Numbered from the stretch's first letter, positions 29,245-52,394 are shown. The stretch: 64,000 nucleotides of DNA from a virus (IMGVR_UViG_3300047323_000545); one strand, 5' to 3'. Numbers and translations are program-made. The notes: generated by a model not told the origin, from the letters alone.

Positions 29245-30117
29245 TCAGTCGAACAGGTCGGAGACCTCGTCGGTGCCCGCGAGCGGGGCCGCAGAGGCGG
29301 TCGCGTGGGCCGCCAGGGACGGCGCTACACGCTCTGCGCTGCGGGCCGCGACCCGGGCGCCCGACGGCGCGGTCCGGGCGGAGGCGGCCTTCATGACGCG
29401 GTCCAGGACGCCGATCTCACGGTTGATCAGCTCGTCGGAGAGGCTGGCGTCGGACTCCAGGCGTGCGGACACGGTGAGGTCGTCGCCGCTGGCGATACCG
29501 GCCTGGATCTGCAGGCGGGCCAGGCGCAGGCACGCGTGCGTGCGCGACGGACCACCGCTGGCACCGGCCATCTCACCCGTAGTCACCGGGTTGGAGTTGG
29601 ACTTGTTCTCGCTCATCGTCCAGGGGAAGGCGACGTCCCACTGGGCCGGGTCGCCGACGCGTACGTCGGTTTCGATGCGGGTCTCGTCCAGCGGGACCTC
29701 ACCGGTGTTGACGCCGGAGACCGGGGAGGTGACGTCCTGCAGGTTGCCGTACGGCTCGGCAGGGAGGGTGCCTCCCGGGGTGAGCGCGGTGTCGGTCGCT
29801 GCGGCCGGGACACCGGCGGTGGAGTTGCCGGTCTGGCCCGGGGAGCGGACGTCGTCGTTGGTCTCGGGGGTCGCGGCCTGCTCGGTCGTCTCCGACGGGG
29901 CCTGCTCCGGCCCGTCCGGGATCGGCTGGGCGGGGTTGGCGATGTCGGCCGTCTTGGAGAGGGCTTCGACCTCGCCGGTGACTCCGGCCAGCCGGGCGAT
30001 CAGCGCGATCTGCTTCCCCTGGACGGCGAGCTGCTGAGACTGGGCGGCCAGCTGCTTGCGCTGGTCGTCGATGACCAGCTGCTGGGCGGTCAGCGCTGCC
30101 ATGAGCGGTCGGCTCAT
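29245..30117 (-). CDS. Scaffolding-like protein
   Basis: N-terminal coiled coil, low-complexity middle, ends DEVSDLFD; between protease and capsid genes. Confidence 0.65.
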   Translation of the reverse strand: MSRPLMAALTAQQLVIDDQRKQLAAQSQQLAVQGKQIALIARLAGVTGEVEALSKTADIANPAQPIPDGPEQAPSETTEQAATPETNDDVRSPGQTGNSTAGVPAAATDTALTPGGTLPAEPYGNLQDVTSPVSGVNTGEVPLDETRIETDVRVGDPAQWDVAFPWTMSENKSNSNPVTTGEMAGASGGPSRTHACLRLARLQIQAGIASGDDLTVSARLESDASLSDELINREIGVLDRVMKAASARTAPSGARVAARSAERVAPSLAAHATASAAPLAGTDEVSDLFD

Positions 30118-30181
30118 ACTGGACACTCCTTCAAAGCCTGTGGCGCTCACGACGGCTGCCGTGGGCGGGGTCTTCACTGCT

Positions 30182-33100
30182 TCAGGTGCGCGGGAGCTGC
30201 GGGACAGCAGGCGGGGGGACAGAAGACTTGCCCTGCAGTTCTGCGGGGGTCAGCAGCTGCGCCTTGTTGCAGTTCGGGCAGACGTCCCCGGCGACGATGC
30301 CGTCGGTCGCGCCTGCCGCGTTGCCCATGTCCTGGGTCTGCGGTGCGGTCGCGTCCGCTCCGAACCCGCAGTGCAGGCAGTTCAGGTCCGGCACGCCGTC
30401 GCTGGGCTGGCCGTCCTTCGGCGTGCGCGGGGCCATCACGCTGAAGCGTCGGCGACGTGGGTCGTCCGGCTCCTCGGCCTGCTCCGGTCCCGGAGCCTCG
30501 TCGGACACGTCCCGGTTCCAGGACCAGTGCGGCGTCTCACTCTCGTCGCCGGTGTAGTCGCCGGGGTGCGCCAGGATCGGCTCCTGCGGAGACCCCATAC
30601 CGGGGCCCTGGAAGCCACTGTCGTCATCGTCTTCCTGCAGGCCGCCTTCGGGACCCTCAGGCCCCTGCATACGCGGCATGTCAGGGCCGGGGGTGAACGG
30701 GTCTCCCATGCGGTCCGTGGCGCGGCCGGGCAGCTCGCGCGGGCCTGCCTGGCCGCCCTGTTCCGGGTCGACCAACTGCGGCTGGGCGTTGACGTTGCCG
30801 TCCGGGTCGATCTCGTCCGGCTGGATCATGCCGTCGCCGTTGCGGTCGGAGACGGCCGGGCCCATCTGCTGGGTGCCGTCGAGCGCCTGGTCGCCGAACG
30901 GGGACGGCGGCAGGCCGTTCTCGTCGAGCTGGTCGGGGTCGACCATCTGCGGGTCGTCCTCGTCCAGCGGCTGCCCGTCGGGGCCCAACTGCTCCTCGCC
31001 GGGCTCCTCGCCCTGCTGCGGCATGCCGGTGCCGTCGTCGTTGACGCGCTGCAGTTCGCCGTTGTTGTCGACCAGGGAGGGGTCGACGATCTGCTTGCGC
31101 AGGTCGAGCTGCTTGGCCTTGTCCAGGTCCGGGTCGCGGAACTGCTCCGGCGGGTTGATGAACCCGCAGATCTGGCACTGGATCCCGTCGAAGGTGTCCT
31201 TGTCGCCGCAGACCGGGCAGTTCTCCTCGCGGAGCGTGTCGACGTCGGCCGGGGCCTTGATCTCCCCGTACGCCAGCGCGCTGATGGATCCATCGGCGTT
31301 GATCATGACGGCGTCAACCACCTTCGCCACGTGGGAGTTGCCCTGCTCCTTCAGCTCCGGCGCGTGCTCGCCCGCAAAGCCCTTCCAGTGGCCCTTGATG
31401 TTCTCCTCGGCCTTGTTACGCCCCGCGCCCAGGTTCTTGGCGCTGGCGTTCGCGTTGGCCTGGTCCTCGGCGGTGTTGAGGCGCTGGCGCACCAGCCAGG
31501 TCACGGCCTGCACCTGGTGTGCGGCGACCGGCTTGCCCTCCTTCTCGGAGATGGCGGCGGCGGCGTTGCGGTAGGTGTTGGCGGCGTGCTCGTAGTAGTG
31601 CCGGGCGTGCTTGCCGCTCTGGGCGCCAGGGAAGCCCTGGTGGGCGTCGTTCTCGACGTCGGTGATCCGGCGCCCGGCCGCCACGGACAGTGCGTGCCGG
31701 TCGACGACCACCCGGCCGGACAGCCGACGCTCGGCGCCGGACTTCTTCTCCTCGTCGGTCTGCGGTTCGTAGCCGCCGTGCTCGATGAGGTGCGCGAAGT
31801 CCTGGGTCTTCGGTGCCTTCAGGACCGGCTGGTGGTGCTCGCCGTCCATGATGCGCTGCGCCTTGTCGGCGTGCATGCCCATGGTGACGGTGTGCGCGGG
31901 CTTGTCCGGGTCGTCCTTGAGCGGCCGGACGGCCGCCTGCCGGTGGAAGGAGTGGGCCGCGTTGAACATGTTCATCGGCCAGTTGGTGCGCGGGCTGTAG
32001 GCCGACAGGACACCGGCGCCCTTGTGGGCGGCCTCTTCGTCGGTCTTGATGCTGGGGTCGAGCTTGGCGATGGCCTTGGCGACGTGGTGGGCGTCGCTGT
32101 ACCAGCGCATGCCCGAGTCCTTCTCCTCTGGCGTGGCCTGGTCCCAGTGCTTGACGATGTGGTCGTGGTGCAGCGGGACTTGCTTGTACCAGGGGTGGTC
32201 TCCGGCGGGCTCGTACGGCTGGCCGCGCTTCGGCTTCGGGGTGCCGTACTCGTCCAGTTCGGGCTCGGCCGCCTTCGGCGCGGGCTTCTTCGCAGCCGCC
32301 ATGGCCTCCAGCGCGGCGGTACGGCGGCGGCCGAACAGCTTCTGCTGCTCCCACTGCGGTGCGGCCGGAGCGGGAGCCTGGGCGCGCGTGCGGGACTTGG
32401 TGGTGCGCTGCCTTGGCGCGGGCTCGGCGCCGTGGAACGGGCCCTTGGAGCCGTCGCCGAACGGGGTACGCGGGTGCGGCGAGTGGGCGACGTAGGCAGG
32501 TACCGAGTCCATGCGGCGCTCGTACGCGGCCTGGGCGCGGTGGTGGCCGTCAGCAACCTGGTAGACGCCGTGGCGGTGCACCAGCACCAGCGGCGGCACC
32601 TTCTCCGGGTTCTCGGCGTAGCCCCGGCTGGCGTTCTCGACGCGGCCGTCGCCGCCGCCATGGTGCTTGAAGTCGATGTGCTGGGGGTTGATGTGCTGCA
32701 GGTGGAACTCCAGGCTGTGCACATCGGAGGACTCGTCGTGCGGGTCGTCGGGCCGGTTGTGGGCCAGGTGGTTGGCGGCCCAACCGATGCCCTCGCCGTC
32801 GGCGCCCTCAGCGGCCTCGCCGTGGTACTCGGGGTCGCCGTAGACGTGAGGGTGCCGCTCGCCGATCTCGTCCCACGAGAACGGGCCGGTGCTGTTGGCC
32901 TCCACCTGCAGGGCGTTGAGGCTCGGCTTCAGCGGCGTGAAGGGCTTCGAGTGCGACACCGCGTCCTCGCGGCGCTGCCGGTTCTCCGTGGTGCCCTCGA
33001 ACGGGACGTGCGGCACGGCGGGCTTGGCGTGGGAGACGGGGTGGGCGGGCTTCGGCTGGGGTGTCGCGTCCTCGCCGTCGTCGTCGCCCTCCAGGTCGTC

Positions 33101-33808
33101 GTGGTCCTCGAACTGGGAGTAGTCGGTCGCGGCCGTCTTCGAGGCGGCCTTGCCGAGGCCGGAGGTGTCCACGCCGAGGAAGTGCGCGGTGGGGTCGGCC
33201 GGGGGCTCGACGAGCACCGAGTTCTCGAAGAAGCGCAGGCCGAAGCAGGTCTCGCGGACCAGCTCGCCGACCTTCTTTCCGCCCGCCGTGGCGCGGAAGA
33301 TCCGCTTGCCCTTCAGATGGGGGATGTGGGAGCAGTAGTCGGCCGGGGTGCGGGCCTCGTTGCCGCAGGCGGAGCACACGGAGCGCTCGACGTCGCAGCC
33401 CATGGAGGTCCGGTCGATATGTCCGGCCAGGATCGCCTTGGCCAGCTTGGGGAACCGGGTGGCGTCGATCTCCATGAGGACTTCGGCCCAGGTGTCCGGC
33501 GAGCCGTCGGGGTTGCGGTCCTGGTGAAGGGCGGCGTCGATGATCACGCCTCGGGCACGCCGGTGGTTGTCATTGACGTGGTTCACGAAGACCGGCTTGC
33601 CGACGAACGTCTTGTACGACGCCGCGATCTCCTCGGCAGGAAACTCGTCGAAATTGTCGTTGCAGCGTGAACTGATCGCCCTGCTGCGTACGTACAAGTA
33701 GCCGGGGCGAGCCTCGTACTGGAACACCGCACGGTGGGCCGCCTTGGTGACGCGCTGCTGGTCGCCGAGGCTGGCGGCGATGATCTGGGCCGTGGCGAAC
33801 TTCAGCAC
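30182..33808 (-). CDS. Giant multidomain prohead protease (protease + ParB/Srx + HhH-glycosylase-like + Zn ribbons)
   Basis: GTG after GGAGG (VLKFATA). Protease motifs GKPVFVNH, TSMGC, FFENSVLVEPPADPTA; VADGHHR; GMRWY/SPR/PKT/VDRH/QAVTW; CPVC-CQIC and CLHC-CPNC. Confidence 0.8.
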   Translation of the reverse strand: MLKFATAQIIAASLGDQQRVTKAAHRAVFQYEARPGYLYVRSRAISSRCNDNFDEFPAEEIAASYKTFVGKPVFVNHVNDNHRRARGVIIDAALHQDRNPDGSPDTWAEVLMEIDATRFPKLAKAILAGHIDRTSMGCDVERSVCSACGNEARTPADYCSHIPHLKGKRIFRATAGGKKVGELVRETCFGLRFFENSVLVEPPADPTAHFLGVDTSGLGKAASKTAATDYSQFEDHDDLEGDDDGEDATPQPKPAHPVSHAKPAVPHVPFEGTTENRQRREDAVSHSKPFTPLKPSLNALQVEANSTGPFSWDEIGERHPHVYGDPEYHGEAAEGADGEGIGWAANHLAHNRPDDPHDESSDVHSLEFHLQHINPQHIDFKHHGGGDGRVENASRGYAENPEKVPPLVLVHRHGVYQVADGHHRAQAAYERRMDSVPAYVAHSPHPRTPFGDGSKGPFHGAEPAPRQRTTKSRTRAQAPAPAAPQWEQQKLFGRRRTAALEAMAAAKKPAPKAAEPELDEYGTPKPKRGQPYEPAGDHPWYKQVPLHHDHIVKHWDQATPEEKDSGMRWYSDAHHVAKAIAKLDPSIKTDEEAAHKGAGVLSAYSPRTNWPMNMFNAAHSFHRQAAVRPLKDDPDKPAHTVTMGMHADKAQRIMDGEHHQPVLKAPKTQDFAHLIEHGGYEPQTDEEKKSGAERRLSGRVVVDRHALSVAAGRRITDVENDAHQGFPGAQSGKHARHYYEHAANTYRNAAAAISEKEGKPVAAHQVQAVTWLVRQRLNTAEDQANANASAKNLGAGRNKAEENIKGHWKGFAGEHAPELKEQGNSHVAKVVDAVMINADGSISALAYGEIKAPADVDTLREENCPVCGDKDTFDGIQCQICGFINPPEQFRDPDLDKAKQLDLRKQIVDPSLVDNNGELQRVNDDGTGMPQQGEEPGEEQLGPDGQPLDEDDPQMVDPDQLDENGLPPSPFGDQALDGTQQMGPAVSDRNGDGMIQPDEIDPDGNVNAQPQLVDPEQGGQAGPRELPGRATDRMGDPFTPGPDMPRMQGPEGPEGGLQEDDDDSGFQGPGMGSPQEPILAHPGDYTGDESETPHWSWNRDVSDEAPGPEQAEEPDDPRRRRFSVMAPRTPKDGQPSDGVPDLNCLHCGFGADATAPQTQDMGNAAGATDGIVAGDVCPNCNKAQLLTPAELQGKSSVPPPAVPQLPRT

Positions 33809-33848
33809 ACCGGGTCCTCCTGTGCGGGCGGCGGCGCCTGGTGCGCCC

Positions 33849-33883
33849 TCGCCCCTTGGGGGTGGACGGGGTGTGGCGAACAG
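33849..33883 (-). promoter_or_regulatory. Putative late promoter
   Basis: CTGTT-N21-AAGGGGCGA. Confidence 0.7.
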
Positions 33884-34121
33884 GAGGGCAACCTGGGAGC
33901 CGTCGGTGGCAACAGATTGGAGAAGGAGGTGTGTAGACCTCATGAAGGGGAGAACCGATGGCCAGTGGTTCGGCACAATGCGAGATAAGGTCTCCGCTTG
34001 TCAGCCGAAGCGGAGGGTCCTCTTCCTCGCTTTGGCGACAAATAGACTTATTCTAAATTTACCGATACCGTTCATCCGGCGCGTCGTTGAACGATGCGAC
34101 GTCCCGCAGACGACATGCAGA

Positions 34122-34168
34122 GAGCCCCGGCCGACCTTCCTGGCAAGGAATCGGGTCGGCCGGGGCTC
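34122..34168. terminator. Strong hairpin downstream of the holin
   Basis: gagccccggccgacc...ggtcggccggggctc. Confidence 0.65.
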
Positions 34169-34200
34169 GGCTCCGGTCTACGTCAGCGGTAGATGGCGGT

Positions 34201-34503
34201 CTACGGCCGGTCTTCCGGAGTGGGATCCGACGTGGCGGTCGCCGGATCGGGGGTGCTGGCCTTGCGGTGCCGTCCCGTGTAGGTCGGCCTGGCAGTGGAG
34301 CCGAGGAGTAGCCCCGCGAGCGGCCAGCGTGACTGAAGCAGGTGGGCGAGCGTGTAGTACGCGGCGCCGAGGACCACGGTCAGCAGGCCGGTGAGGTTCT
34401 GCGTGAACTCGGCGCTGGCGTGGACGTTGTGCGAGGCGAGGAACGCCAGGACGAAGCCGACAGCCATCGGAACGACCGTACGGACAAGAGCGGGAGTAGG
34501 CAC
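34201..34503 (-). CDS. Putative holin
   Basis: ALVRTVVPMAVG...AAYYTLAHLLQSRWPLAGLLLG..PTY, typical of actinophage holins; two TMs. Confidence 0.72.
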   Translation of the reverse strand: MPTPALVRTVVPMAVGFVLAFLASHNVHASAEFTQNLTGLLTVVLGAAYYTLAHLLQSRWPLAGLLLGSTARPTYTGRHRKASTPDPATATSDPTPEDRP

Positions 34504-34529
34504 CTGAACTCCTTGGGCCAGGGGATGCT

Positions 34530-34564
34530 TCGCCCCTTGACGGCCCGCAGGTACGCCCGGACAG
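34530..34564 (-). promoter_or_regulatory. Putative late promoter
   Basis: CTGTC-N21-AAGGGGCGA. Confidence 0.72.
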
Positions 34565-34802
34565 CACCGGGCCCCGGGGATTCGGGCGGCCGTCACGGCT
34601 GTGCTCATGATGGATCGCCTCCCCCGTCAGCTCGTGTCTGTCAGTTTGCTGAGCTGATCGTATGACGCCGGGTGGTACTGGTGTCAACTTTCCATGCACC
34701 TCGGCTTGTTCTGAGCACCCGGGTGTATGGAAACCATGCATCGGCGCTAGGATCCAGGCATGGGTCAATTTTTTTCATCTCGACATAGGGAGGGGGGACC
34801 CG

Positions 34803-35378
34803 ATGCCTCTAGGTCGCAAGTTCCGCCAGCTGCATGCCTTGAAGCTCAGCCCTGATGGCAAGAAGTACGACATCAGTGTGATCGCCCGCGAGGCTTCAAG
34901 GTTGTACCGCGAGGAGAAAATTCTGCGGACGACCCAGGAGCTTCAGGCTGCCGGTGTCAGTATGAAGGAAATCGCACAGGCGTGCGAGACGATTCGCGCC
35001 GAGCCCGACGTGATCAACCGCCTGTACCTGTCTGAAGTGCGCGACGGCAAGAAGCGGGATGTGAAGTGGGGGGTCGTCGAGGCCCTCAGTCTCTTCTTCC
35101 GTGTCGAGACGGACTTCTGGCGCATCGGTGCCGACGCTACGGACAAGACGCGCAGGATCGAGAAGGAAGTGGAACTTATCCAGCTCGGCTTGCAGGTGGC
35201 CAAGGCCGCCCAGGCGCTCGATAAGCCTACGGACGGTGACCAAGAGAGCACGCAGGGCATGGAGTTGATCGGGGCCCTGCTGCGTGGAGGCCAAGAGAAG
35301 GACCCCGCGCAGGTGGAGAGCATCTTCCGCGTGGCCCTGATGGCCCTACAAGCGGCCCCCGAAGCAGAGACCGGATAG
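34803..35378 (+). CDS. HTH (Xre/EspR-like) DNA-binding protein
   Basis: INRLYLSEVRDGKKRDVKWGVVEALSLFFRVETDFW; GGAGG SD. Confidence 0.72.
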   Translation: MPLGRKFRQLHALKLSPDGKKYDISVIAREASRLYREEKILRTTQELQAAGVSMKEIAQACETIRAEPDVINRLYLSEVRDGKKRDVKWGVVEALSLFFRVETDFWRIGADATDKTRRIEKEVELIQLGLQVAKAAQALDKPTDGDQESTQGMELIGALLRGGQEKDPAQVESIFRVALMALQAAPEAETG

Positions 35379-35437
35379 CTCCATTGTCAGCCCCGTGCCT
35401 TACGCTGAGTGGCGTCAAGAGGCAGACTCGGTGATCA

Positions 35438-35995
35438 ATGGGGGCTTGGATGGGTGTGATGCGGAACCGGCGTGGCCTGAAGGGGACTTGGGACCAAGCA
35501 TTGACGAGGCTGGTGCTCCCCGCGTCTCCCTGGACGGCCGAGGACCTGCTGCGCGCGTACGTGGAGCAGGTGCGCGGTCGCAAGCTCATCCTCAGTCGCG
35601 ATCCAGTGGTGGCCTCGCCGAACGGCCCGAGCGGCATGTGGTTTCCCACGCCGGACACCGACCTCGTCTGGGCCCATCCCGCCATATCGGGCATACCGTA
35701 CAACCACGTCCTGGGGCACGAGCTTGGCCACATGGTCAACGGAGATGAGCCGGACCGACTCAACCTCACCAGCATCGTGCGCCTCTTGATGGGGGCCTGC
35801 ACCAGTACATCGGGCCTCCTCGCGGACGCCCTCTCCTCCGCCGGAGTCCTGTGCCGCGCCGACGGCACGAGCAGTGAGGACCGCGAACGGAAGGCCGAGA
35901 AATTCGGCTACTTCGCCGAGGGCTGGCTGGCCCAGAACGCCCCCCGCAAGGCCACCCTCCTGGAGGCGAATGTGCGAGAGAGCCTCGCCCTCTGA
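35438..35995 (+). CDS. ImmA/IrrE-like zinc metallopeptidase-fold protein
   Basis: PSGMWF...NHVLGHELGHM...ERKAEKFG (HExxH plus distal E). Confidence 0.8.
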   Translation: MGAWMGVMRNRRGLKGTWDQALTRLVLPASPWTAEDLLRAYVEQVRGRKLILSRDPVVASPNGPSGMWFPTPDTDLVWAHPAISGIPYNHVLGHELGHMVNGDEPDRLNLTSIVRLLMGACTSTSGLLADALSSAGVLCRADGTSSEDRERKAEKFGYFAEGWLAQNAPRKATLLEANVRESLAL

Positions 35996-36010
35996 CCGAG
36001 ATGAGTAACG

Positions 36011-37760: not shown

Positions 37761-39979
37761 CAGTCCAGCCATGTGGTGTCATCCTCCTGTGCCGCCAGGA
37801 CGTGCTCCAGGTCGGCGTAGTGGGTCCCCTTGATGTCCAGGCGGTCGAGGTTCGCCGCCCGCACCCCCTCACCCTCGTTGATCAGCGCCTGCTGCTCAGC
37901 GAGAGAGAAGTCCTTCAGCGCCTGCCGCTTGAGGCCCGCCGTCATCGACGGCGTCAGGTCCGACGCCTCATCCGTCGGCACCGCCCCGTCCGTCGAGGGC
38001 AGCGCACCCTCCGGCTCGTCGTGCAGCTCCGCCTCCGTGCCGCCGGGCTCGAACAGCGCCGCCTCCAGACCCCCGTGGGCGTACGACTGCAGCGGCAGCT
38101 GCCGGTTCCAGCCCGCCGGGTCCCCGCCCGCGAGCGGTCCGGCCGACGCCGGGTTCTCCCAGGGCCTCTTCGGCGCCGTGGCTCCCGGCGCCTTGGGCAG
38201 CAGGTACGACGTCCCCGACGGCTCCCCGAACGGCGCGTCGGCATTGGCCAGCGGCCGGATGCCCGCCACGCTCAAGGCCAGCAGCAGCTCCTCCTGGTCC
38301 TCACCGGCGACCACGGTCGCACGGGCGACGACCGACATGGGCGCCTGCTGCAGGGAAGCGTGAGCGGCATGGCCGCCGGGAAAGTCGTGACGCTGGTGCT
38401 CCCAGAGGTGGTCGAAGAGGCCGTCGCCCTTGAACGTCCGGAAGTCCTCGTCGGGCGTGTTCATGTTCTTCCAAGAGACGCCCTTGAGGTGCACCCCGGC
38501 CCCAGGGTGGAGCGGGATCTCACTCTCGCCGTGGTCGTGGTAGCCGTAGATCATTCCGTCGGACTGGTCCGGGTCCTCGTCGATCGCGTGCCGGTCAGGC
38601 TTCTCCGCGTGGAAGACGACCGACGTGGGGTGAGTGCCGTGCCGGTTCGGGCGATCGTCCATCTCGCCGAAGGACTCGGCCACGCCGTGGTTGTCCGTCC
38701 AGTGGCGTCCCAGGCCCTCACTGCCCCGGGCCAGGTCGCTGTGCGGGAGTGACTTCATCAGGTGCTGGGCGCGCTCGTGCATCGGGCGGGACTCGTCGTG
38801 GACGATCGCGTGATCCTCGGGGCGCAGATGGACGTTGACGCCCCGGTGGATATCGCCAAGACCTTCGTGGATGCTGTCCCACTCGTTCGACTTCCGCTGC
38901 TTCTCCGCAAAGTAGTCGTGGTCGCCGTGTTCTTCGGCGTCCATGTCCCACATGGACGGCTCGGGGGCGTCCCACGAGGAGAGCTTGCGAGCGGTCGCCG
39001 GGGCGAGCCGGTTGGTGTCGGCGTCGATGTCGTAGCGGACGACGACATGGCGGGGTACCCAGGTGGGCTTGTGCTCGTCGGCGTTGACGTCGCGGCCGAA
39101 CATGCCCCTCGACTGGGCCTCGTACTGCAGGGCCAGCGCGTGGGAGCACATGCGCCCGGCGAACCGGCTGAAGTCGTCGTCGGCGCCCCAGTGGTAGGCG
39201 CCCCACTTGCAGCCGCAGGACCAAGAGTGCGCGGCCACCTTGCCCGGCATGCGCTGCAGGCCGGTCTCGTAGACGTGGTGGTCGCCCTTGACCTCGGCGT
39301 AGACCAGGCCGTCGGAGGCGAGGGTGACGCGCAGGCGGCCCTCGGAGCGGATCCGCTTGGCCTTGGCCACCACGTCGCGCCAGGCGGCCGTGATGTGGAA
39401 GCGGAAGTCGGTGTCAGCGGCGGCCGTCACGACCAGGTCGGAGAAGAGGGCGGACGCCTTCTTGGCCCACGGCGGCGCGTCGTCGTCGCCGTCGCTGGAG
39501 TCGTAGTCATCCTTGTCGTCGGAGTCGTCGTCCGAGTCCTTGGAGTCGTTTTCTCCGGAGTCGTCGTCGTTCTCCGAGTCGTCCGAATCCGGCTCGTCGC
39601 TGTCGCTGTCGGCAAAGGGGTTCTTGCCCGCCGTGACGAACTGGCGGGCCGGGTCCGGGCGCTCGACGAGGATCTGGGACAGCTCCGGGTAGTCGACGGC
39701 CGCCGTCTGCTCCATGGCCTCGGCGGTGATCGGCGCCGGGCTGAGCTGGGAGGCCGTGTACCGGCCGCCACCCAGACCTCGGTCCAGCACGACCTCGTAC
39801 TCCTCGGAGCCGGGGAAGGGGCCGTCCTCGACGTGCTTGACGACGCCGGTGACACCGTCGATCGTCTGTACCCGCTGCTCGGGCTTGTACTCCCAGTAGT
39901 CCTCGGAGCGCACCGCGAGACGCTGCACGCCCAGGGTCTGGTGCTCCAGGCGCTCGCTGCGCTCGAACTTGCCGCCCAC
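37760..39979 (-). CDS. Multidomain head-associated protein with SWIM Zn finger and ADP-ribosyltransferase-like domain
   Basis: WSCGC...MCSHALAL; IHRG...GLGRHWTD..VAESF...GESEIPLHPG; acidic D/S tract. Confidence 0.7.
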   Translation of the reverse strand: MGGKFERSERLEHQTLGVQRLAVRSEDYWEYKPEQRVQTIDGVTGVVKHVEDGPFPGSEEYEVVLDRGLGGGRYTASQLSPAPITAEAMEQTAAVDYPELSQILVERPDPARQFVTAGKNPFADSDSDEPDSDDSENDDDSGENDSKDSDDDSDDKDDYDSSDGDDDAPPWAKKASALFSDLVVTAAADTDFRFHITAAWRDVVAKAKRIRSEGRLRVTLASDGLVYAEVKGDHHVYETGLQRMPGKVAAHSWSCGCKWGAYHWGADDDFSRFAGRMCSHALALQYEAQSRGMFGRDVNADEHKPTWVPRHVVVRYDIDADTNRLAPATARKLSSWDAPEPSMWDMDAEEHGDHDYFAEKQRKSNEWDSIHEGLGDIHRGVNVHLRPEDHAIVHDESRPMHERAQHLMKSLPHSDLARGSEGLGRHWTDNHGVAESFGEMDDRPNRHGTHPTSVVFHAEKPDRHAIDEDPDQSDGMIYGYHDHGESEIPLHPGAGVHLKGVSWKNMNTPDEDFRTFKGDGLFDHLWEHQRHDFPGGHAAHASLQQAPMSVVARATVVAGEDQEELLLALSVAGIRPLANADAPFGEPSGTSYLLPKAPGATAPKRPWENPASAGPLAGGDPAGWNRQLPLQSYAHGGLEAALFEPGGTEAELHDEPEGALPSTDGAVPTDEASDLTPSMTAGLKRQALKDFSLAEQQALINEGEGVRAANLDRLDIKGTHYADLEHVLAAQEDDTTWLD

Positions 39980-41413: not shown

Positions 41414-41440
41414 GGGTTCCTCCCGGAGGGTGGTGAGATC

Positions 41441-41474
41441 TCACCCCTTCGGTTGGAACCCGTGACCGAGACAG
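41441..41474 (-). promoter_or_regulatory. Putative late promoter
   Basis: CTGTC-N20-AAGGGGTGA. Confidence 0.72.
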
Positions 41475-41477
41475 CAA

Positions 41478-42275: not shown

Positions 42276-42289
42276 GGGGGCTCCAGGGG

Positions 42290-45200: not shown

Positions 45201-45325
45201 CGCCGGTCGGCGATCTCCCCGCTGTTGGTGAGCACGCCGACGAGCTGCAGCCGAACCGTTCCGCTGCGGGGATTGCCCGAGCCGTCCGTGTAGGTCCGCG
45301 TGACCGGAACCAGCGTGAATGTCAT
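42290..45325 (-). CDS. Fibre/spike with two tandem pectate-lyase-like beta-helix domains
   Basis: Two NVK..GAKGDG.TDD..AIQAAI.A...YFPAG.Y motifs, each followed by parallel beta-helix repeats. Confidence 0.85.
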   Translation of the reverse strand: MTFTLVPVTRTYTDGSGNPRSGTVRLQLVGVLTNSGEIADRRPYTATLDSLGKISLSVQATNDPDTLPVGGGTYEVTETLSGLATATYFIAVPYDGGTVDLATAPRLAEALAPGIFFQPVNTRGLPNGYAGLDGSGRVPLDQLPANLGTGGGSATPISGDNTDIQALGTRAAGASGKAADAQHVHQMPLLHQVGLPTASIPLNGQRITGAADGVNPQDYATVAQLGGSALAWYNVKDKLYGAKGDGATDDRAAIQAAIDACPSGGIVYFPAGVYRTSATLKPKPGVVLQGVHSSLMSGPGLTDPPSYIQPLASFTGTALLTYQDQTTGGYSSLAAEHRLQDIMLDGSTLDGTKPVDGIYAAGNVQNLVMRNVTIRKMSNNGIVTAGVSNVFPYSWRLHSVMVDNCRGNGMLLNRMTDITLDDCQVIGCWATGFILNNIANSTLLGCRSEWNGNYGYYITGSWGNGAGSGGAVMSACSTDRNGWDGVRVDATGNGPLTIGELVTRRDGRNGGSGGANYAGLSLVGSTMPVVVSGLTCYPGVDDNGSGTNSPQYGVRLSGASNVQLDIAYLHADAQGLYDDGTNTAVTIGATVTTATGPTTAPVRATRPSLAVDWLNVKKYNAKGDGVTDDAPAIQAAINAASAAGGGTLYFPAGRYILNASLTWASGVNAIGAGARVSILQSTNQTLDCITGTDISGVTLQALQLSGPGRGYGSGVRFTRFSAPSTANISLRDMLIQSFGGDGVFCHELASSTLHRVRVRTCGGLGFHLRSPQDTVLGGTSTSLISCSAEGNVTGGFWLDGMAYTTLNACSASNTPAGYRLDNCLAVNITGSGAEQCTTGLIIYGGNGTVVSGFYTEASDGTSVWLTNATSGAILSGVVEASPGSGATTCLRADAGTYGTALGLIAVKPNALNGTVNLLGQGDGSVTLAGRTVVPATGTGARMGTVVLVGGTATVNTTAIGAGSVVMLTTQAPGGTVGTPYVSARTAGTSFAVTSTSASDTSTVGWRILDPS

Positions 45326-47505
45326 ACCTGCAGCTCCATGTTGATGTCGGCCTCCGTGATGTGGCGGCGCATGCCGAGGTGGCGCGGGCCCTGGTAAAGG
45401 CCGACGGCCTGCTTGCGCTCGATCGCCTCGGGGACCGGAACCTCGGCGTCGTCCTCGACGACCGGCTTGACCGGCACCTTGACCTTGGGCTGGTGCTCGT
45501 CGGCCAGGGCCTTCATCCGCTCGTGGTTCTGGAACAGACCCACCACGTCGTCCAGGCGCGGCCGGGGGTACGGGATCAGCGAGGACTGCTTGGGCATGTC
45601 ACCGCGCGCCTCGTCGGACTCGTCGGGGCGCTGCTCTGCGCCGCCCTGGCTGCCGTCGACCGGCTCCGTCTCCATGCCGGGCTGGGCGACCCCACCGTCC
45701 GGCGGCGTTGAGGTCAGGTCCTGCATGGTCGGCGCGATCGTGGGCTGCGTGGTGACCGGGTCCATGCCGAGGATCGGGATCCGCGACGGCGCGGTCGGCA
45801 TCGCGCTGGGGTCCTGGGACTCGTCCAGGGCGCGCGGCTCGAAGTCGGAGCGCAGGTCCTGGCCGATGGGCAGGCCCTTGTCCTTGAGCGCGACATAGAT
45901 GGCCTTGCGGGTCTCCTGCTCGGCCACCGCCATCTCGACGGCCTCGTCGCGCGACTTCTCGATCTCCTCGTCGAAGTCGATGTTGATGTTGTGCAGCCGG
46001 GTCTTCATGCTGATCGGCACCCCGGCCTCGCGCAGGGCCTCGAAGAACTCGTTCTGCGCGGCCTCGTCCTGCAAGCTCATGGTCTTGAACTGCAGGTCGG
46101 GGATCAGCAGCTTCGGCTGCTCGACGATCCGGCCCTCGCCGGTCTCCTCGTCGATCTCGTAGATCTCCTCCATCTTCACGTACCGCTTGCCGTTGCGCTC
46201 TTCGTAGTCGAAGTGCTCCTGGGCCTCGGCGACGACGAGGGCCCGCTGGCGGTAGTGGGAGGAGATGAGGTTCTGGTAGTTGGTCAGCATCTGCGTGACC
46301 AGGTCGCGGTTGAGGGCGTCGGCCGCGTACGTCTCACCGGAGGACGCACCGGCGAGCATGGTCTTGGACAGGCCGAAGGTCTGCAGGACCCGTCCCTCGA
46401 TCCGGTCAAAGTCGCCGGTCAGGTCGGGGATGTCCTCCTTGCCCAGCACCGACTCCATCTGGACCGCGAAGTGGGTCATGATGATGCGGAAGTCGCCCGC
46501 GAGGGCCGCGTCCACGGCCTCCTCGAAGTCGGCGAGGTCGTCCATGGTCGGGATCCACGGCACGTTCGTGCCGAGGTCGGACGCAGACGCGCCGAGCTTG
46601 GCGTGGATGAGCGGCGTGTACAGCCTGTCGGCGATGGAGTCGACGGCCGCGTTCAACATTTCTTCCTGCATGAGCGAACGCATCGCTCTGTACAGCAGCG
46701 GGATGCCCCGGGGGTTGAACGTGTCCGCCTCGAACTTGATCTGCCGCAGCAGGATGTTCGACACCGGCATGAGGGCGTTGTCGTCGGAGTAGTACGTCAG
46801 CTCCGGGTACGCCGTGATGAGCTTCTCGTACTCCCAGGCGGGCTGCCGGGTGCGGATCAGCTCCTTCATGCTCTGCGGGAGCCGGATCAGGAACCGGGGC
46901 TCGCGCAGGAACGGGCTCGGCTGCACCTCGACGTCGTCGGGGTTCAGCAGCTCCTCGTCGTCCCAGACACCGAGGTCCTCGTTGAAGGTACCCAGCGGCC
47001 ACGCCTCGCCGGTGGTCCAGTACTCCCGGCCCATCTTGACCAGGAACTTCTGGTAGTCCAGGCCGTCCTCGGAGAGGAAGTGGTCCGTGTAGAACTCCGT
47101 GAGCCGCTCGTCCTTGCACGTCATCTTCAGTCCGAGCAGCGGGTACTTCGAGTAGATGTCGACGCAGGAGCCGACCAGCGGATGCGAGATGTAAAGAAGT
47201 CGGCAGTACGCCCGCATCTTCTGCATCTGCGCCGGGTCGTCGAACTGGAACGGGAGATTATTTTGTCTCCAATAAAACAGCGGGTCGCGCGGCCTGACCG
47301 TGGCGAAGTCCACCGAAGGACCGCCCGCACCGCCGCCGGTGAAGCCCGCCGCTGCCGTCCTCCGTTGGGCGACGCGCCGGTTGGCGCGCATCTCGGCCTC
47401 TTCGCCCGACTCGCTCGGCCGCGAGGAAAAGCGGCGGAACAAGCGGTCGATCCGTGACTGCTCGCCGTCGTAGTTCGGCTGGGCTCCGCCCCGCTGGCTT
47501 GCCAT
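45322..47505 (-). CDS. Portal protein
   Basis: HPLVGSCVDIYSKYP, REYWTTGEAWP, RGIPLLYRA; size and position. Confidence 0.8.
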   Translation of the reverse strand: MASQRGGAQPNYDGEQSRIDRLFRRFSSRPSESGEEAEMRANRRVAQRRTAAAGFTGGGAGGPSVDFATVRPRDPLFYWRQNNLPFQFDDPAQMQKMRAYCRLLYISHPLVGSCVDIYSKYPLLGLKMTCKDERLTEFYTDHFLSEDGLDYQKFLVKMGREYWTTGEAWPLGTFNEDLGVWDDEELLNPDDVEVQPSPFLREPRFLIRLPQSMKELIRTRQPAWEYEKLITAYPELTYYSDDNALMPVSNILLRQIKFEADTFNPRGIPLLYRAMRSLMQEEMLNAAVDSIADRLYTPLIHAKLGASASDLGTNVPWIPTMDDLADFEEAVDAALAGDFRIIMTHFAVQMESVLGKEDIPDLTGDFDRIEGRVLQTFGLSKTMLAGASSGETYAADALNRDLVTQMLTNYQNLISSHYRQRALVVAEAQEHFDYEERNGKRYVKMEEIYEIDEETGEGRIVEQPKLLIPDLQFKTMSLQDEAAQNEFFEALREAGVPISMKTRLHNINIDFDEEIEKSRDEAVEMAVAEQETRKAIYVALKDKGLPIGQDLRSDFEPRALDESQDPSAMPTAPSRIPILGMDPVTTQPTIAPTMQDLTSTPPDGGVAQPGMETEPVDGSQGGAEQRPDESDEARGDMPKQSSLIPYPRPRLDDVVGLFQNHERMKALADEHQPKVKVPVKPVVEDDAEVPVPEAIERKQAVGLYQGPRHLGMRRHITEADINMELQV

Positions 47506-47523: not shown

Positions 47524-47558
47524 TCACCCCTTGGGGGTGGGCGAGCCGCCACAGACAG
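47524..47558 (-). promoter_or_regulatory. Putative late promoter
   Basis: CTGTC-N21-AAGGGGTGA. Confidence 0.75.
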
Positions 47559-47564
47559 GGCCGA

Positions 47565-48265: not shown

Positions 48266-48276
48266 ACCGCTCACCT

Positions 48277-48311
48277 CCACCCCCTACAGGTGGAGCGACG
48301 CCCCCGGACAG
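48277..48311 (-). promoter_or_regulatory. Putative late promoter
   Basis: CTGTC-N21-AGGGGGTGG, next to a terminator hairpin at 48317-48347. Confidence 0.68.
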
Positions 48312-48405
48312 CACAACGCCCCTCCTGACGTCTAGGCAGGAGGGGCGAGTAGCCCGCGCGTGTGGATGCCGAATCGCGACAGGCTGGTGGCCATGGGGCC
48401 TTCGG

Positions 48406-48762
48406 CTACGGTACCGGTTCCGGGACGGGCCGGGGGCCGGTTCCGTCGTACGGGAGAGCCAGTCCGGCGTCGATCAGCGCCTGGCCCAGGTCCTCGGTGC
48501 CGGACAGGACCGTCGCGAGGTAGCGACCGTACTTCTCCCGCTTGTCCTTCTGGGTCCGGACGGTGAGCACCGGCCCATGTTTCTGGACCCAGTCCCGGAC
48601 GAAGGCGGTGGCCTTGTCGCCGAGTTCGGTGCCGTGCTCGGCGGCGTTGATGCCGAGGAGGCGCGCCCGCTGCCTGGTGAGCACTCCGAACCCGAGGTCG
48701 AGCTGCAGGTCCAGGGTGTCGCCGTCGACCACCTTCTCCACGGTGGCCTGGTAGATGAACAC
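48406..48762 (-). CDS. Thermonuclease (SNase-like)
   Basis: VVDGDT, RLLGINAAE, EKYGRYLA. Confidence 0.9.
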   Translation of the reverse strand: MFIYQATVEKVVDGDTLDLQLDLGFGVLTRQRARLLGINAAEHGTELGDKATAFVRDWVQKHGPVLTVRTQKDKREKYGRYLATVLSGTEDLGQALIDAGLALPYDGTGPRPVPEPVP

Positions 48763-48975
48763 CTACTGACCTCCGAAGATGATGTGCGGGATGAACCAGG
48801 CCGTCAGGCCCAGCCAGGCGATGACGAAGGCCGCCTTGCCGGGCCGGGTGCTGGTGTGGAACCAGGTCCGAACCCGCTCGGAGAGCGTGTCGCCCAGCTT
48901 GCCGTTGAAGACGCCGTACATCTCGTAGGCGAACGCGGTGCCGAGAATGGCTCCCCAGGTGAGGTTCGGGTCCAT
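48763..48975 (-). CDS. Small membrane protein
   Basis: Two TMs around DTLSERVRTWF. Confidence 0.65.
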   Translation of the reverse strand: MDPNLTWGAILGTAFAYEMYGVFNGKLGDTLSERVRTWFHTSTRPGKAAFVIAWLGLTAWFIPHIIFGGQ

Positions 48976-48983
48976 CGCTGCTC

Positions 48984-50225
48984 CTACTCGAACAGGCTGT
49001 GCTGGAGGCTGGCCCGGTGGGAGAAGGCGTGCTCGGCCGGGTCGGTCGGCAGCGACTGCTGGCCACCGGCGGGCGCGCCGCTGTCGGGGTGGGAGAAGTC
49101 GGTCACCACCGACCGCACCGGCGGCTCACCCGTCCCGCGCTCGCCCGGCTCCGCGTGGGAGAACGGCAGCCTGGAAGGGGTGCGCCCCAGTTCGTCCAGA
49201 CTGTGCTCCATGTCGTCGGTCCTCCGGTCGTGCGCCTGCTGCAGGTACTTCGTGCGCTGCTCGGTGTCCGCCGGGCTCTCGAAGCGGTCCGCGCGCGGGG
49301 TGTCCCACTTGTGGTTCATCTCGGCCTGGTCGCCGTTCAGCCGGTTCATGATGTCGTTGAACTCGCGGCGCCCCTGCTCGTCGTGATGACGAGTGACGGC
49401 GTCATCGACGTGGTCGGAGGCCGCGTTGTTGCTCGGGGTGATCAGCGGGGCCCGCCCGGGGGCCGGGGCCGACGGCGCCGGAGTCGAGGACGGCGCCGGG
49501 GTGTGCTGCGCATCCTCGCCGCCGTGCCACCAGTCCTTCAGCCGCTGGTAGAACCCGGCTACGGTCGGGTCCAGGGAGGCAGCCGAACCGAGGCCCTCTT
49601 CCAGGCCGTCCAGGCGCTTGTTGACCTCGTCGAAGGTGCTGGAGCCGCCGTTGGCGCCCGGGTCGGCCGCCGGGCCGCTGGCGCTCTCCGGAAGAGCCTT
49701 GGGCAGCTGGCCCGGGGTGAAGTTCTTGGCCCGGTTGGTGACCGGGCCGTCGTGCGTGCCGCCCCACGACTCGTACGCCAGCGGGTAGGCGTCGGCGTGC
49801 ACCCGGACGGCCTCGGTGGCCAGCTTCAGGCACTCGACCATCGGCACGCCGGGGTTCTGCCGCGCCGCCACGGCGGCCAGGCGGGCCGCCACGGTGTCCA
49901 TGGCCTGCTCCTGGGCGGCCGTCACCTGCCGCCGGGCGGCCGTCTTCTGAGCGGTCGCCGTACGCGTCTGGGACAGCAGCTGCCATCGCTCGGTCAGGTC
50001 GCCGGTCAGGTCCTGCAGCGGGTAACCGCGCAGGGACGCCACGGCCTGCAGCTGCGAGTCGGCCAGCGCGAACCGGTTGACCAGGTCGACGTCGTTGGCC
50101 GCCTGGTAGAGGAACTGGCCGACCATGCGCTCGGCGTCGTTCAGGGCGGCCGTACGGGCCAGCTCACGACGCTCGTGGTCGAGGTCGCGGCCGGTCTCGT
50201 CCCACATCAGGGATGCGATGTCCAT
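48984..50225 (-). CDS. Putative internal head protein
   Basis: Late operon; helical N-terminus then low-complexity segments with repeated TAA/HAS motifs. Confidence 0.6.
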   Translation of the reverse strand: MDIASLMWDETGRDLDHERRELARTAALNDAERMVGQFLYQAANDVDLVNRFALADSQLQAVASLRGYPLQDLTGDLTERWQLLSQTRTATAQKTAARRQVTAAQEQAMDTVAARLAAVAARQNPGVPMVECLKLATEAVRVHADAYPLAYESWGGTHDGPVTNRAKNFTPGQLPKALPESASGPAADPGANGGSSTFDEVNKRLDGLEEGLGSAASLDPTVAGFYQRLKDWWHGGEDAQHTPAPSSTPAPSAPAPGRAPLITPSNNAASDHVDDAVTRHHDEQGRREFNDIMNRLNGDQAEMNHKWDTPRADRFESPADTEQRTKYLQQAHDRRTDDMEHSLDELGRTPSRLPFSHAEPGERGTGEPPVRSVVTDFSHPDSGAPAGGQQSLPTDPAEHAFSHRASLQHSLFE

Positions 50226-50228
50226 GGG

Positions 50229-52394
50229 TCAGGCGCCCTTTCGCTCGGCGAGGAGGCCCGACTGCACGCGTCGGCGGAACGCAGCCGCCGTCGGGGACAG
50301 GCCGGAGCCGGAGTTGTACGCGGACGCCATGCCGCTGTCGGGTATGGTCACCGGCTGGCCCTGCGGCACGGCCGCCGAGGACGGCACGACCGGCTGGCCC
50401 ATCGGCTCGGCCCCGTTGTAGGGGGCGGCACCGGCCGGGGCGGCTGCGTCCATCTGTCCCGCGAGCGGGCCGGGCTTGCCGGGGCCGTTGATCGGGGTGT
50501 CGCCGGACGGCGACGGCGAGGTGGACGGGTTGGTGGTGGCCAGGTCGATCCCGGTGGCGGCCTGGACCTGCAGGTAGGTGCCATCGGTGGGCAGCGCCTG
50601 CGCGGCGGCCACCTTGTGGGTCAGCTCCCGGTGCTGGGCGATCCGGCGGCCCAGGGCGGGCTCGACGGACGTCAAGGCCGCGTGCGCGGACAGCCACGCA
50701 CCGCGCGAGTGCGGGTTGTCGGTGAACCCGGCGTAGATACCGGCCTCCAGCTCCGGCGAGCCGGGCCGGACCACCGGAGTGCCCTCCTTCCAGCGGGCCG
50801 CGTACTTGTAGCCCTTCTGGAAGTCCGGGTGCTGCATGTCCTGCCGGGACGCCACGCGACGCGAGGCGAACGCGGGGTGCTTCAGGGACTGCCCGTTGTC
50901 ACCGCCCATGGAGTACGGCACGTCCTGCGCGGGCGCGGCCGGGGCAGTGCTGGTGTAGCCCTGGGTGTACTGGGGCGCGGCGTGTGCGTCACCGAACGAG
51001 GGCGCCGTGTCTGCCGCGCGGGCGTCCGCAGCGCCGTCACCGGCCTGCCCGACGTTCCTGGGCGGCGTGGAGCGCGGCGAGTTGGCGATGTTCGGCTCGA
51101 TGATCTGGTTCGGCTGGGTCCACTGGTCGGCCCGCCGCTGCAGGGAGGCGTGCGGCTGGTGGCCGGAGGAGACCTGGCCGCCCTGGTCGTACTGGGCGTC
51201 GCCGGTCATGCCGTGGGCCTCGCCGCCCTCGTCCAGCGTCCACGGGAACGCCACGGTGGTCGGCAGCGGCGTCTTGTGGTCCTGGTCGTGGACGTCGACC
51301 GACTGCTGGACCTGCTCCAGGCCGGACGCGGCCGTCTTGGGCCGCTGGGAGACGTCACCGGCCTCCTGGGTCTGCTCGGTCTCCTCCTGCGCCGGTTCGG
51401 CCTGCGGAGTGGCGTTGGTCGGCCCGCCCTGCGCCGGGAGGTCCCCGGAGATGGAGTGGCCGCCCGCGCGCTCCGGCGAGGAGCTGCCGCCACCGCCGGA
51501 CAGGGACGGCTCGGCGCCGGGGCCGGTCAGCTGGCCGCTGCTGTCGTGGCCGCCGGGCTGCTCGGGGCTGGAGTTCCCGCCCTGCTGGGACATCTGGATC
51601 GCCGGGGCCGCGCTGGAGGTCTCCGTGCCGGAGACGGCGGTGTTGATGTCGGCGACCGGCGGCGCGAAGTTGTCGAAGACGTCCGGGGGCAGCGGGGTCG
51701 GCTTGTTGGTGACGCCGTCCGGCGCGGTGGTCTGCTGGATCTGGTCCACGCCCGAGGCGGCCTCGACGGTGACGGCCTGGGTGCGCAGGAACGTCGCGTA
51801 GCCGACGAAGATGTCCTCGGCCGTCTGGGACTGCGCGCCGAGGCTCGCGCTGACCTGGCGGGCCTTGCCGACGGCCTGCTCGGCGAACTCCTCCTGGTCG
51901 GCCTTGACGAAGTCCGGCACGCCGCCGAACCACAGCGCGGCCTGCGCGATCAGCTGGCCGTGGTCGAACGGGGTGTCGGCGACCTCGGTGTCCAGCCAGT
52001 CGGACGCGGACGTGCCGCGCGCGACGGAGGAGACAACCGGGGTGAACCTCTCCCGGATCGAGGTGTCGGCCAGGTCCGCCTCGTGGTCCAGCGCGGCGGT
52101 GCGCTGCGCGGCACGGTCGAACTCGTGAAGCTGGGCGACGAGCTTGAGCTGCTCGTCGAACGATGCGGCACGCTCGATCCGCTGCAGCAGCTCGGAGCGG
52201 TCAGGGCTGGGCATGCTGTTCTCCTCCTGCGCGCCCGCGCGGCGCATCCGGCGACGTACGGAACGGTCTTCGCGGGAGGGGTTGCGGCGTGGGCCGCGCG
52301 CAGCAGGACGCATCGGCTCGCGAGAGGACTCCTCGGCGGTCCAGGACTCGTCCGTCCACAGGTCGTCCGGTGCGTCGTGTCGAGCGTCGTACAT
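50229..52394 (-). CDS. Large low-complexity putative internal head/core protein (alternative start 52214)
   Basis: Internal repeat AASG(V/L)(D/E)Q(I/V)QQ...TPLP; first gene after a late promoter. Confidence 0.65.
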   Translation of the reverse strand: MYDARHDAPDDLWTDESWTAEESSREPMRPAARGPRRNPSREDRSVRRRMRRAGAQEENSMPSPDRSELLQRIERAASFDEQLKLVAQLHEFDRAAQRTAALDHEADLADTSIRERFTPVVSSVARGTSASDWLDTEVADTPFDHGQLIAQAALWFGGVPDFVKADQEEFAEQAVGKARQVSASLGAQSQTAEDIFVGYATFLRTQAVTVEAASGVDQIQQTTAPDGVTNKPTPLPPDVFDNFAPPVADINTAVSGTETSSAAPAIQMSQQGGNSSPEQPGGHDSSGQLTGPGAEPSLSGGGGSSSPERAGGHSISGDLPAQGGPTNATPQAEPAQEETEQTQEAGDVSQRPKTAASGLEQVQQSVDVHDQDHKTPLPTTVAFPWTLDEGGEAHGMTGDAQYDQGGQVSSGHQPHASLQRRADQWTQPNQIIEPNIANSPRSTPPRNVGQAGDGAADARAADTAPSFGDAHAAPQYTQGYTSTAPAAPAQDVPYSMGGDNGQSLKHPAFASRRVASRQDMQHPDFQKGYKYAARWKEGTPVVRPGSPELEAGIYAGFTDNPHSRGAWLSAHAALTSVEPALGRRIAQHRELTHKVAAAQALPTDGTYLQVQAATGIDLATTNPSTSPSPSGDTPINGPGKPGPLAGQMDAAAPAGAAPYNGAEPMGQPVVPSSAAVPQGQPVTIPDSGMASAYNSGSGLSPTAAAFRRRVQSGLLAERKGA

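Follow-up and report, generated by a model that had tools for sequence, protein, structure and literature searches.

In phage T4, N-terminal targeting peptides are taken off by the prohead protease gp21 at the site L/I-x-E, with Alt as an example of single-domain cargo, and the Dar proteins of phage P1 are also effectors packaged in the head. Prohead proteases of the phiKZ type cut after glutamate at (S/A/G)-x-E, which takes the form A-x-E in SPN3US. The herpesvirus protease assemblin cuts after alanine and before serine at V/L-x-A↓S (the arrow marks the cut bond, here and in the candidate sites below), and it is synthesized in fusion with the scaffold, as an N-terminal domain that releases itself. 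The present analysis concerns a stretch of 64,000 nucleotides from the virus IMGVR_UViG_3300047323_000545 (referred to here as the window, with positions counted from its first letter), and in particular the head-protein genes at positions 29,245 to 52,394. One of these encodes a polyvalent protein that begins with a prohead protease domain. This protein and at least five other head proteins (the scaffold, the portal and proteins of 761, 413 and 724 amino acids (aa)) share a short motif with alanine at the presumed P1 position, which marks points of module exchange and is probably the substrate site of this protease.

Packaged, protease-processed effectors and polyvalent phage proteins are an established concept. 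Polyvalent proteins are giant multi-domain proteins encoded among virion genes, with ADP-ribosyltransferase (ART), ParB-like, GNAT, NUDIX-type and peptidase domains; they undergo rampant domain shuffling, and the proposal is that they are packaged, undergo proteolytic processing and are delivered together with the DNA (Iyer, Burroughs, Anand, de Souza and Aravind, 2017, PMC5512222). The ADP-ribosyltransferase Alt of T4 is packaged in the head and injected (PMC5512222). The ejection proteins of phiKZ and SPN3US are head-packaged effectors and often processed (PMC10052503, PMC7411985, PMC5694885), with those of SPN3US being cut by the prohead protease (PMC10052503, PMC7411985). The head proteins of the window resemble polyvalent proteins in that a protease, a ParB-like module, DUF7178 and zinc ribbons are joined in one protein and SWIM-like and ART-like modules in another, and also in the extensive domain shuffling among their homologues. 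However, the assemblin-like peptidase was found by the survey to be rare and "always at the C termini" (PMC5512222), whereas more than 600 proteins of the present family have it as their first domain. The survey also describes no junction or cleavage motif, and the ParB-like module here is not placed in its DdrB-like clade. Compared to phiKZ, 201phi2-1 and SPN3US, which have a gp21-like protease, the motif here is of the alanine type and [AGS]xE is not enriched; the substrates in those phages are separate gene products and not a protease-headed polyprotein. Similar to T4 with its Alt and internal proteins IPI-III, the window has a protein of 413 aa in which a conserved site follows the first 26 residues, but the ART-like module, unlike Alt, is a movable cassette within a larger modular protein and is a predicted ART only. 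New here are the protease-first polyprotein, the alanine-type junction motif and the cassettes, each with its own flanking tag.

The closest isolated phages are those of the Bxz1/Myrna/E3/Pupper group, with an identity of 39-45% confined to the protease segment, and a megablast search of the region matched none of the phages in the collection at the nucleotide level. These cluster C-like actinophages possess genes annotated as "capsid maturation protease" or "prohead protease", namely E3 gp77 (895 aa), Pupper gp94 (1,082 aa) and Myrna gp97 (1,211 aa). They share with the window a homologous protease domain, the motif at homologous junctions and a gene order in which the protease is followed by the minor and then the major capsid protein, but their C-terminal cargo is unrelated. 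No description of the polyprotein nature or the motif of these genes was found in literature searches. Myrna gp97 (L083:8896-12531), also protease-first, carries the GenBank label "tape measure", which looks like a misannotation, since the protein has a protease domain and its gene precedes those of the capsid. The window itself has a G+C content of 68% and is coded almost wholly on the minus strand. Profile searches of its proteins identified baseplate J, a tape-measure-like/hydrolase protein, tail sheath, ThyX, endolysin and tailspike, and it is the virion module of a high-GC Bxz1/E3-like actinobacterial myovirus. Database homologues of the protease-first protein lie on contigs of 150-158 kb in many Streptomyces assemblies, and the element is therefore a Streptomyces member of the Bxz1/E3 myovirus group. 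One of these contigs (Streptomyces sp. RLB1-9) is annotated as a plasmid, which suggests a phage-plasmid lifestyle.

A preliminary description of the window, made from its sequence alone, had proposed assemblin-type cleavage sites of a degenerate form in the head proteins, and each peptide it quoted was found at its place in the translated window. Seven head proteins of the window have 17 copies of this loose motif, compared to 7.1 expected from shuffles, and the other proteins have 16, compared to 15.2; the count is post hoc, the motif having been defined on the very proteins counted. An unbiased tripeptide scan of the window alone ranks TAA at the top (14 against 3.7) and fails correction for about 8,000 tests. 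For these two reasons relatives were retrieved from IMG/VR (40 loci around the protease gene and 34 around the portal gene), giving a test set of 93 head-protein homologues, non-redundant by shared 5-mers, and a comparison set of 394 other proteins from the same loci. Among the head homologues [KR]TA occurs 148 times with 42.5 expected (z = 16.7) and [KR]TA[ASG] 89 times with 11.6 expected, while the ratios for five scrambled controls range from 0.6x to 1.15x. Among the 394 other proteins [KR]TA stands at 1.18x, which bears out the difference between head and other proteins that had been anticipated. When all 8,000 tripeptides were scanned in the head homologues, with homologous sites collapsed by flanking context, RTA came first (64 site clusters against 20.3, p = 8e-15) and KTA second (p = 1e-12), followed by ASL, TAA, TAS and HTA, none of these being among the top tripeptides of the 394 other proteins.

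The motif logo has S/R/Q at P4, R/K at P3, T at P2, A at P1, A/S/G at P1' and L at P2'. While the degenerate form is indeed enriched, it is better split into two specific flavours. The first is [S/R]-[R/K/H]-T-A-[A/S/G]-L. The second, L-Q-x-x-A-[A/S], was found via alignments and has 30 occurrences in head proteins, where 4.0 are expected (7.5x), and two elsewhere, where 5.3 are expected. S[RK][TV]A[ASG] is enriched in head proteins only (20 against 1.4 expected). A glutamate-type (x-x-Glu) cleavage code was rejected, as the enriched motif has alanine and neither [AGS]xE (75 against 80.8 expected) nor [LIV]xE (51 against 48.4) is enriched in the head proteins of the window.

It could be argued that the pattern is a by-product of alanine-rich composition, shared ancestry or a DNA-level signal, given that the proteins are rich in alanine (11.7%), that the homologues are related and that significance in the window alone is lost on correction for multiple tests. 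However, scrambled tripeptides are not enriched and the enrichment survives the collapse of homologous sites. In addition, 93 sites are encoded by 60 different 12-nucleotide codings, AAG/CGN swaps included, and this synonymous variability with its K/R swaps places the constraint at the protein level, while the motif also recurs in non-homologous contexts and unrelated modules. This explanation is largely refuted and very improbable: the motif is genuine, it is specific to the head proteins, and the constraint on it acts on the protein. Another recurrent peptide, GP[ST]K[YW]S[SA][LK], closes a repeated module in homologues of both large proteins (L031, L033, L024, L028, L060 and L066) and often runs straight into the junction motif, as in GPTKYSSKTA↓S.

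The protease-first protein (Table 1) has at least 662 long homologues, and its family ranges from 587 to 2,013 aa among related loci, with database labels limited to "hypothetical", "DUF7178", "ParB/RepB/Spo0J" and, for Myrna, "tape measure". Its start was set at VLKFATAQ by homologue alignment, and it matches phrog_2774, phrog_18299 (head maturation protease) and Pfam DUF7178. The protease domain is N-terminal in all homologues. Neither a PDB profile search nor Pfam on eight sub-segments at E-values up to 1 gave a meaningful match for this domain. Its AF2 model (pLDDT 75) aligns in VIA-align to T4 gp21 (5jbl) with Z 9.2 and a root-mean-square deviation of 2.8 Å over 126 aa, and to herpesvirus proteases with Z 7-8.6, the varicella-zoster virus (VZV) protease having Z 8.6. 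The top 28 rows of this search are exclusively proteases of the gp21/herpesvirus type, while Foldseek E-values are weak (at least 0.03). The domain models as the T4 gp21/herpes-assemblin fold, in agreement with the preliminary description. The histidine of FVNH and the serine of RTSMG, candidate catalytic residues, are invariant in 21 homologues. Besides the fold, a likeness to herpesvirus assemblin is seen in the related locus L022, where the protease polyprotein and scaffold-like protein form one 1,550-aa open reading frame (ORF) (L022:10010-14662, plus strand), which parallels the protease-scaffold fusion of herpesviruses and also of some phages. However, there is no sequence similarity to assemblin, the preference for a basic P3 and threonine at P2 and the many cargo cassettes are without a herpesvirus counterpart, and cleavage here is putative.

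The protease core (FFENS..PADPTA) is followed by the candidate self-release site. A motif behind the core is also present in short stand-alone forms, and [KRH]TA falls within 60 aa of the core in 62 of 120 database homologues, with 4.5 expected. One alternative is that the motif is cut by another protease, either of the host or a second phage enzyme, or that processing takes place in the host after injection. Only co-occurrence ties the motif to this enzyme, and multi-stage processing has been proposed for polyvalent proteins (PMC5512222). Nevertheless, no second peptidase domain was detected in the head proteins scanned, the motif stands directly behind the protease core in most homologues, and it co-varies with this protease family across the Streptomyces elements and out to E3, Pupper and Myrna. 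This alternative is given little credence.

The label ParB/Srx, given to the next module in the preliminary description, is tentative and is based on the motif DGHHR, invariant in the alignment, on weak profile matches to sulfiredoxin and SbnI (E about 0.5, ranging from 0.45 to 0.9) and on the names of some homologues, called ParB/RepB/Spo0J by NCBI or UniRef. No Pfam or NCBIfam match was found for this module. The next segment had been described as glycosylase-like, a label that was not sustained: it is Pfam DUF7178, which a PDB profile search links to no solved or otherwise relevant structure and for which literature searches found no paper. In homologues, x-[T/E]-A↓A is always found within about 10-15 aa upstream of DUF7178. 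The zinc ribbons have weak rubredoxin-like Pfam matches.

The 761-aa protein, with relatives in E3 (gp76), Pupper (gp93) and Myrna (gp96), belongs to a family of 534 to 2,148 aa in which modules are inserted, lost and reordered. In all of its homologues examined the conserved N-module ends with GSLQxxA↓[AS], GS[RK][TV]A↓[AS] or xVxA↓[AGK], and the sequences beyond are unrelated. The SWIM-like module always starts with L-x-x-x-A↓[AS]xD in homologues. Its name stands on the invariant CxCxnCxH signature (C79, C81, C102 and H104 in 18 sequences) and not on a hidden Markov model match, as neither Pfam, including the SWIM model, nor a PDB profile search gave a hit. The peptide HITA↓A, previously put forward as a junction, was rejected because it sits in a conserved helix of this module. 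In the ART-like module, H-R-G and the final E of [E/D]-x-E are invariant and HW[ST] is nearly invariant in 14 sequences. There was no Pfam or PDB profile match for this module. A fold search with its AF2 model (pLDDT 76) against 48,161 chains found 70 reaching a Z of at least 2, nearly all of the 50 listed being ART-fold proteins, and the best Z, a low 5.1-5.5, was to pertussis toxin S1; an ART-like fold is moderately supported by this model. NCBIfam and PADLOC searches of four large proteins gave nothing useful.

Comparison of homologues supports the motif as a marker of the points where modules are gained, lost or exchanged. In L007 the ParB-like module is missing from between LQxxA↓ and RRTA↓A..AAAKK, a deletion bounded by motifs at both ends. 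L015 and L022 are devoid of the ART cassette, L007 has it in duplicate and in L003 it is found elsewhere, and every copy has x-T-A↓ upstream and the end RHDFP..H-x-A↓[S/N]. In seven homologues with Pfam-defined NUDIX, GNAT, Arr-ms or DUF7178 domains no site falls inside a domain, and sites are typically 30-55 residues upstream. A crude and noisy measure based on BLAST breakpoints gave a moderate enrichment, with 72 of 140 sites within 12 aa of an alignment breakpoint compared to 46 expected. Even E3, Pupper and Myrna, which are distant isolates, retain the motif at homologous junctions. Hence the expectation that variable insertions begin and end at the motif was confirmed for the 761-aa family, the ART cassettes and the ParB-module deletion of L007, all of which switch at it, while the proposed sites KKA↓S, VHA↓D, HRA↓S and PHA↓S are without comparative support. 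The preliminary description had also envisaged enzymatic modules swapped into head proteins; modularity was confirmed, the ART-like module has moderate support and homologues contain NUDIX, GNAT and Arr-like modules, while the ParB-like and SWIM-like modules are identified by their motifs and the glycosylase-like one found no support.

The other head proteins carry the motif at conserved positions. In the scaffold-like protein the site [KRH]-x-A-D..NPAQPVP is kept in all homologues, and its family has 15 [KR]TA against 3.4 expected. The portal has an N-terminal arm with NRRV..[RK][RK][TVKS][AG]↓[AS], conserved ahead of a Gly/Ala-rich linker even in divergent homologues. The major capsid protein of relatives keeps [RK]-x-A↓[RK]KSDDY, E3 reading GRFA↓K and Pupper GRFS↓K at this place; LQAVA↓S, which is not conserved, was discarded as a capsid site. 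The ARTA↓AL of the 413-aa protein, which follows a 26-aa N-terminal peptide, is present in 11 of 11 homologues aligned there, and the family has 21 [KR]TA against 4.5 expected. The sites of the 724-aa protein are also conserved in homologues (12 [KR]TA in the family against 5.6 expected). Neither of these two proteins matches a family in Pfam, PHROGs or NCBIfam or has a usable match in the ESM Atlas, the Atlas model of the 413-aa protein having a pLDDT of 0.45. The genes follow the order protease protein, scaffold-like protein, minor capsid protein and major capsid protein. The minor capsid protein agrees in position and N-terminal sequence with E3 gp78 and Pupper gp95, and Myrna gp98 is a minor capsid protein at the equivalent position (PMC7150772), likened here by position.

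Table 1. Head-protein genes, modules and candidate junctions, with positions in the window; arrows mark candidate cut sites.
Feature	Position	Strand	Motif or basis
Major capsid protein	27544..28530	-	329 aa from M115 of ORF; phrog_2522, E = 4e-107
Candidate N-terminal site of major capsid protein, V-R-T-A↓K	28486-28500	-	just beyond range 29245-52394
Minor capsid protein, homologue of E3 gp78	28565..29077	-	conserved homologues in related loci (tblastn)
Scaffold-like protein	29245..30177	-	S-K-T-A↓D at 29944-29958; KAASARTA↓P segment (SARTAP at 29365-29382)
Protease-first polyvalent head protein	30182..33808	-	1,208 aa from V57 of 1,264-codon ORF 30182-33976
Two Cys4 zinc ribbons (31163-31219 and 30269-30379) flanking acidic Pro/Gln-rich tail	30269..31219	-	read from sequence
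DUF7178 module, no assigned function	31487..32164	-	Pfam PF23802, E = 3.7e-28
Junction R-R-T-A↓A-L between ParB-like module and DUF7178	32312..32326	-	conserved as RRTA↓S in L002
ParB/Srx-like module	32417..32884	-	PPLVLVHRHGVYQVADGHHR at 32537-32596; invariant DGHHR in alignment
Junction L-Q-V-E-A↓N ahead of ParB-like module	32894..32911	-	aligned homologues LQAQA↓N, LQATA↓A, LQTTA↓S
Junction S-K-T-A↓A just after protease domain, candidate self-release site	33128..33142	-	comparable motif behind core in most homologues
Prohead serine protease domain	33167..33808	-	ORF residues 57 to ~270; FVNH, RTSMG invariant
Modular head protein, 761 aa	37760..40045	-	N-module, acidic linker, SWIM-like, ART-like, C-module
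S-M-T-A↓G ahead of conserved C-terminal 50 aa	37934..37948	-	LRTA↓G in E3, Pupper; QRTA↓G in Myrna
ART-like cassette	38351..38923	-	IHRG at 38840-38851, GESEIP at 38513-38530
ART cassette flanks	P-A-T-A↓R 38987-39001; A-A-H-A↓S 38354-38368	-	homologue comparison
SWIM-like module	38978..39436	-	CxCxnCxH at 39140-39223; opens with L-V-V-T-A↓A at 39419-39433
Junction F-V-T-A↓G, end of conserved N-module	39626..39640	-	homologue alignment
Portal protein	45322..47505	-	phrog_2833, E = 2e-136; R-R-T-A↓A at 47350-47364
413-aa head-region protein	48984..50225	-	A-R-T-A↓A-L at 50145-50159; Q-K-T-A↓A at 49935-49949
724-aa head-region protein	50229..52403	-	Q-R-T-A↓A-L at 52092-52106; P-K-T-A↓A at 51327-51341; L-Q-V-Q-A↓A at 50556-50573

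The reading favoured here, held with somewhat better than even confidence, is that the motifs are substrate sites of this prohead protease. The proteins would co-assemble in the prohead, with the polyprotein brought in by its protease and scaffold-like parts, and the protease would then cut at the motifs. This cutting would release the protease itself and break up the scaffold, would trim short N-terminal peptides off the portal, the capsid protein and internal proteins, and would separate the cassettes from one another (ParB-like, DUF7178, SWIM-like and ART-like here; NUDIX, GNAT and Arr-like in relatives). As each cassette has its own flanking motif, processing would be kept when a cassette is inserted, duplicated or swapped. 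The freed modules may remain in the capsid and exit with the DNA, although this packaging and delivery is less certain than cleavage.

A number of points weigh against cleavage by this protease. T4 gp21 cleaves after glutamate, and the fold therefore does not predict a specificity for alanine. The S-K-T-A↓A tail is unplaced in the AF2 monomer model (pLDDT below 50) and does not lie in the active site. In the capsid site, it is lysine or arginine, and not alanine or serine, that follows the alanine. [KR]TA[ASG] is also enriched 1.9x in the "other" proteins, some copies of the motif lie in conserved helices and may be structural, and across the whole genome of phage E3 the enrichment is in the same direction but modest and based on small numbers (7 against 2.6 expected). 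Literature searches found no proteomic or biochemical cleavage data for Bxz1, Myrna, E3 or another member of the group. Finally, some packaged polyvalent proteins are unprocessed, an example being the N4 virion RNA polymerase (PMC5512222).

An alternative is that of an uncut motif, serving as a joint between modules or as a capsid-targeting or docking signal bound by the scaffold, portal or protease, with the large proteins packaged or acting intact. The conservation and boundary position of the motif fit a linker or docking motif equally well, polyvalent virion proteins that are packaged unprocessed offer a precedent (PMC5512222), and the monomer model leaves the tail out of the active site. 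However, the positions of the motif, after the protease domain, near the N-termini of capsid and portal, and in the scaffold and internal proteins, match the classical targets of such a protease, including its self-release. The tight preference over about five residues with an invariant small residue is also typical of protease sites, and tandem sites such as HTA↓SKTA↓S are more easily understood as redundant cut sites. It is because of these positions, this preference and the tandem sites that the motif is read as a cleavage site, and an uncut joint or docking signal is considered unlikely. A broader proposition builds on cleavage by the prohead protease, and is advanced tentatively, at somewhat less than even confidence. 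It holds that an Ala↓Ala/Ser code like that of herpes assemblin ([R/K]-T-A↓ and L-Q-x-x-A↓) is common to the whole Bxz1/E3/Myrna-like group, Streptomyces elements included, and that together with a protease-headed polyprotein taking any tagged enzyme cassette it would form an evolvable "load and release" system with a tag of 4-6 residues, by which enzymes of the ART, ParB-like, NUDIX, GNAT and Arr-like kinds would be delivered to the host with the DNA.

Other genes of the window are also worth mentioning. In a 201-aa protein of no family (59896-60501, minus strand), whose gene is a long way from those of the head, residues 14-23 read KAASRTA↓ARR, an extended motif that matches KAASKTA↓A after the protease core and KAASARTA↓P in the scaffold, and this protein may be another substrate of the protease. 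Between the genes for the 413-aa protein and the portal lies that of a 118-aa staphylococcal-nuclease-like protein (48406-48762, minus strand; NCBIfam EcnA/NucI-type, E = 2e-10), which could be a further packaged enzyme. The genes for endolysin and for a tailspike of 1,011 aa, of the pectate-lyase type and with a K1-lyase domain at its C-terminus, lie at 40538-45325 (minus strand), between the portal and the other head genes, an unusual place for either. Genes for ThyX and dCTP deaminase are embedded in the structural genes (21525-22412 and 55188-55760, respectively, both minus strand), and ThyX is found among structural genes in E3, Pupper and Myrna also. Two plus-strand genes (6985-8759) break up the minus-strand tail module. 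A second plus-strand island (35438-37285) sits between the genes for the protease-first and the 761-aa head proteins and encodes proteins of 185 and 424 aa, the latter with Pfam DUF6545. No convincing gene was identified at 34000-35400.

If the motif is a cut site, it would provide a large and heavily sequenced group of actinophages with its first processing code, the group comprising hundreds of cluster C mycobacteriophages, Gordonia and Rhodococcus phages and Streptomyces elements, and would make mature virion proteins and packaged effectors predictable from sequence. It would also mean that a phage protease of the gp21/assemblin fold uses a herpesvirus-like alanine site instead of the glutamate site of T4 and phiKZ, which would bear on the evolution of specificity in an ancient protease lineage. 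The recruitment of very different enzyme modules as capsid cargo would be explained by each cassette travelling with its tag, and the same short tag could be used for loading foreign proteins into these capsids in laboratory strains.

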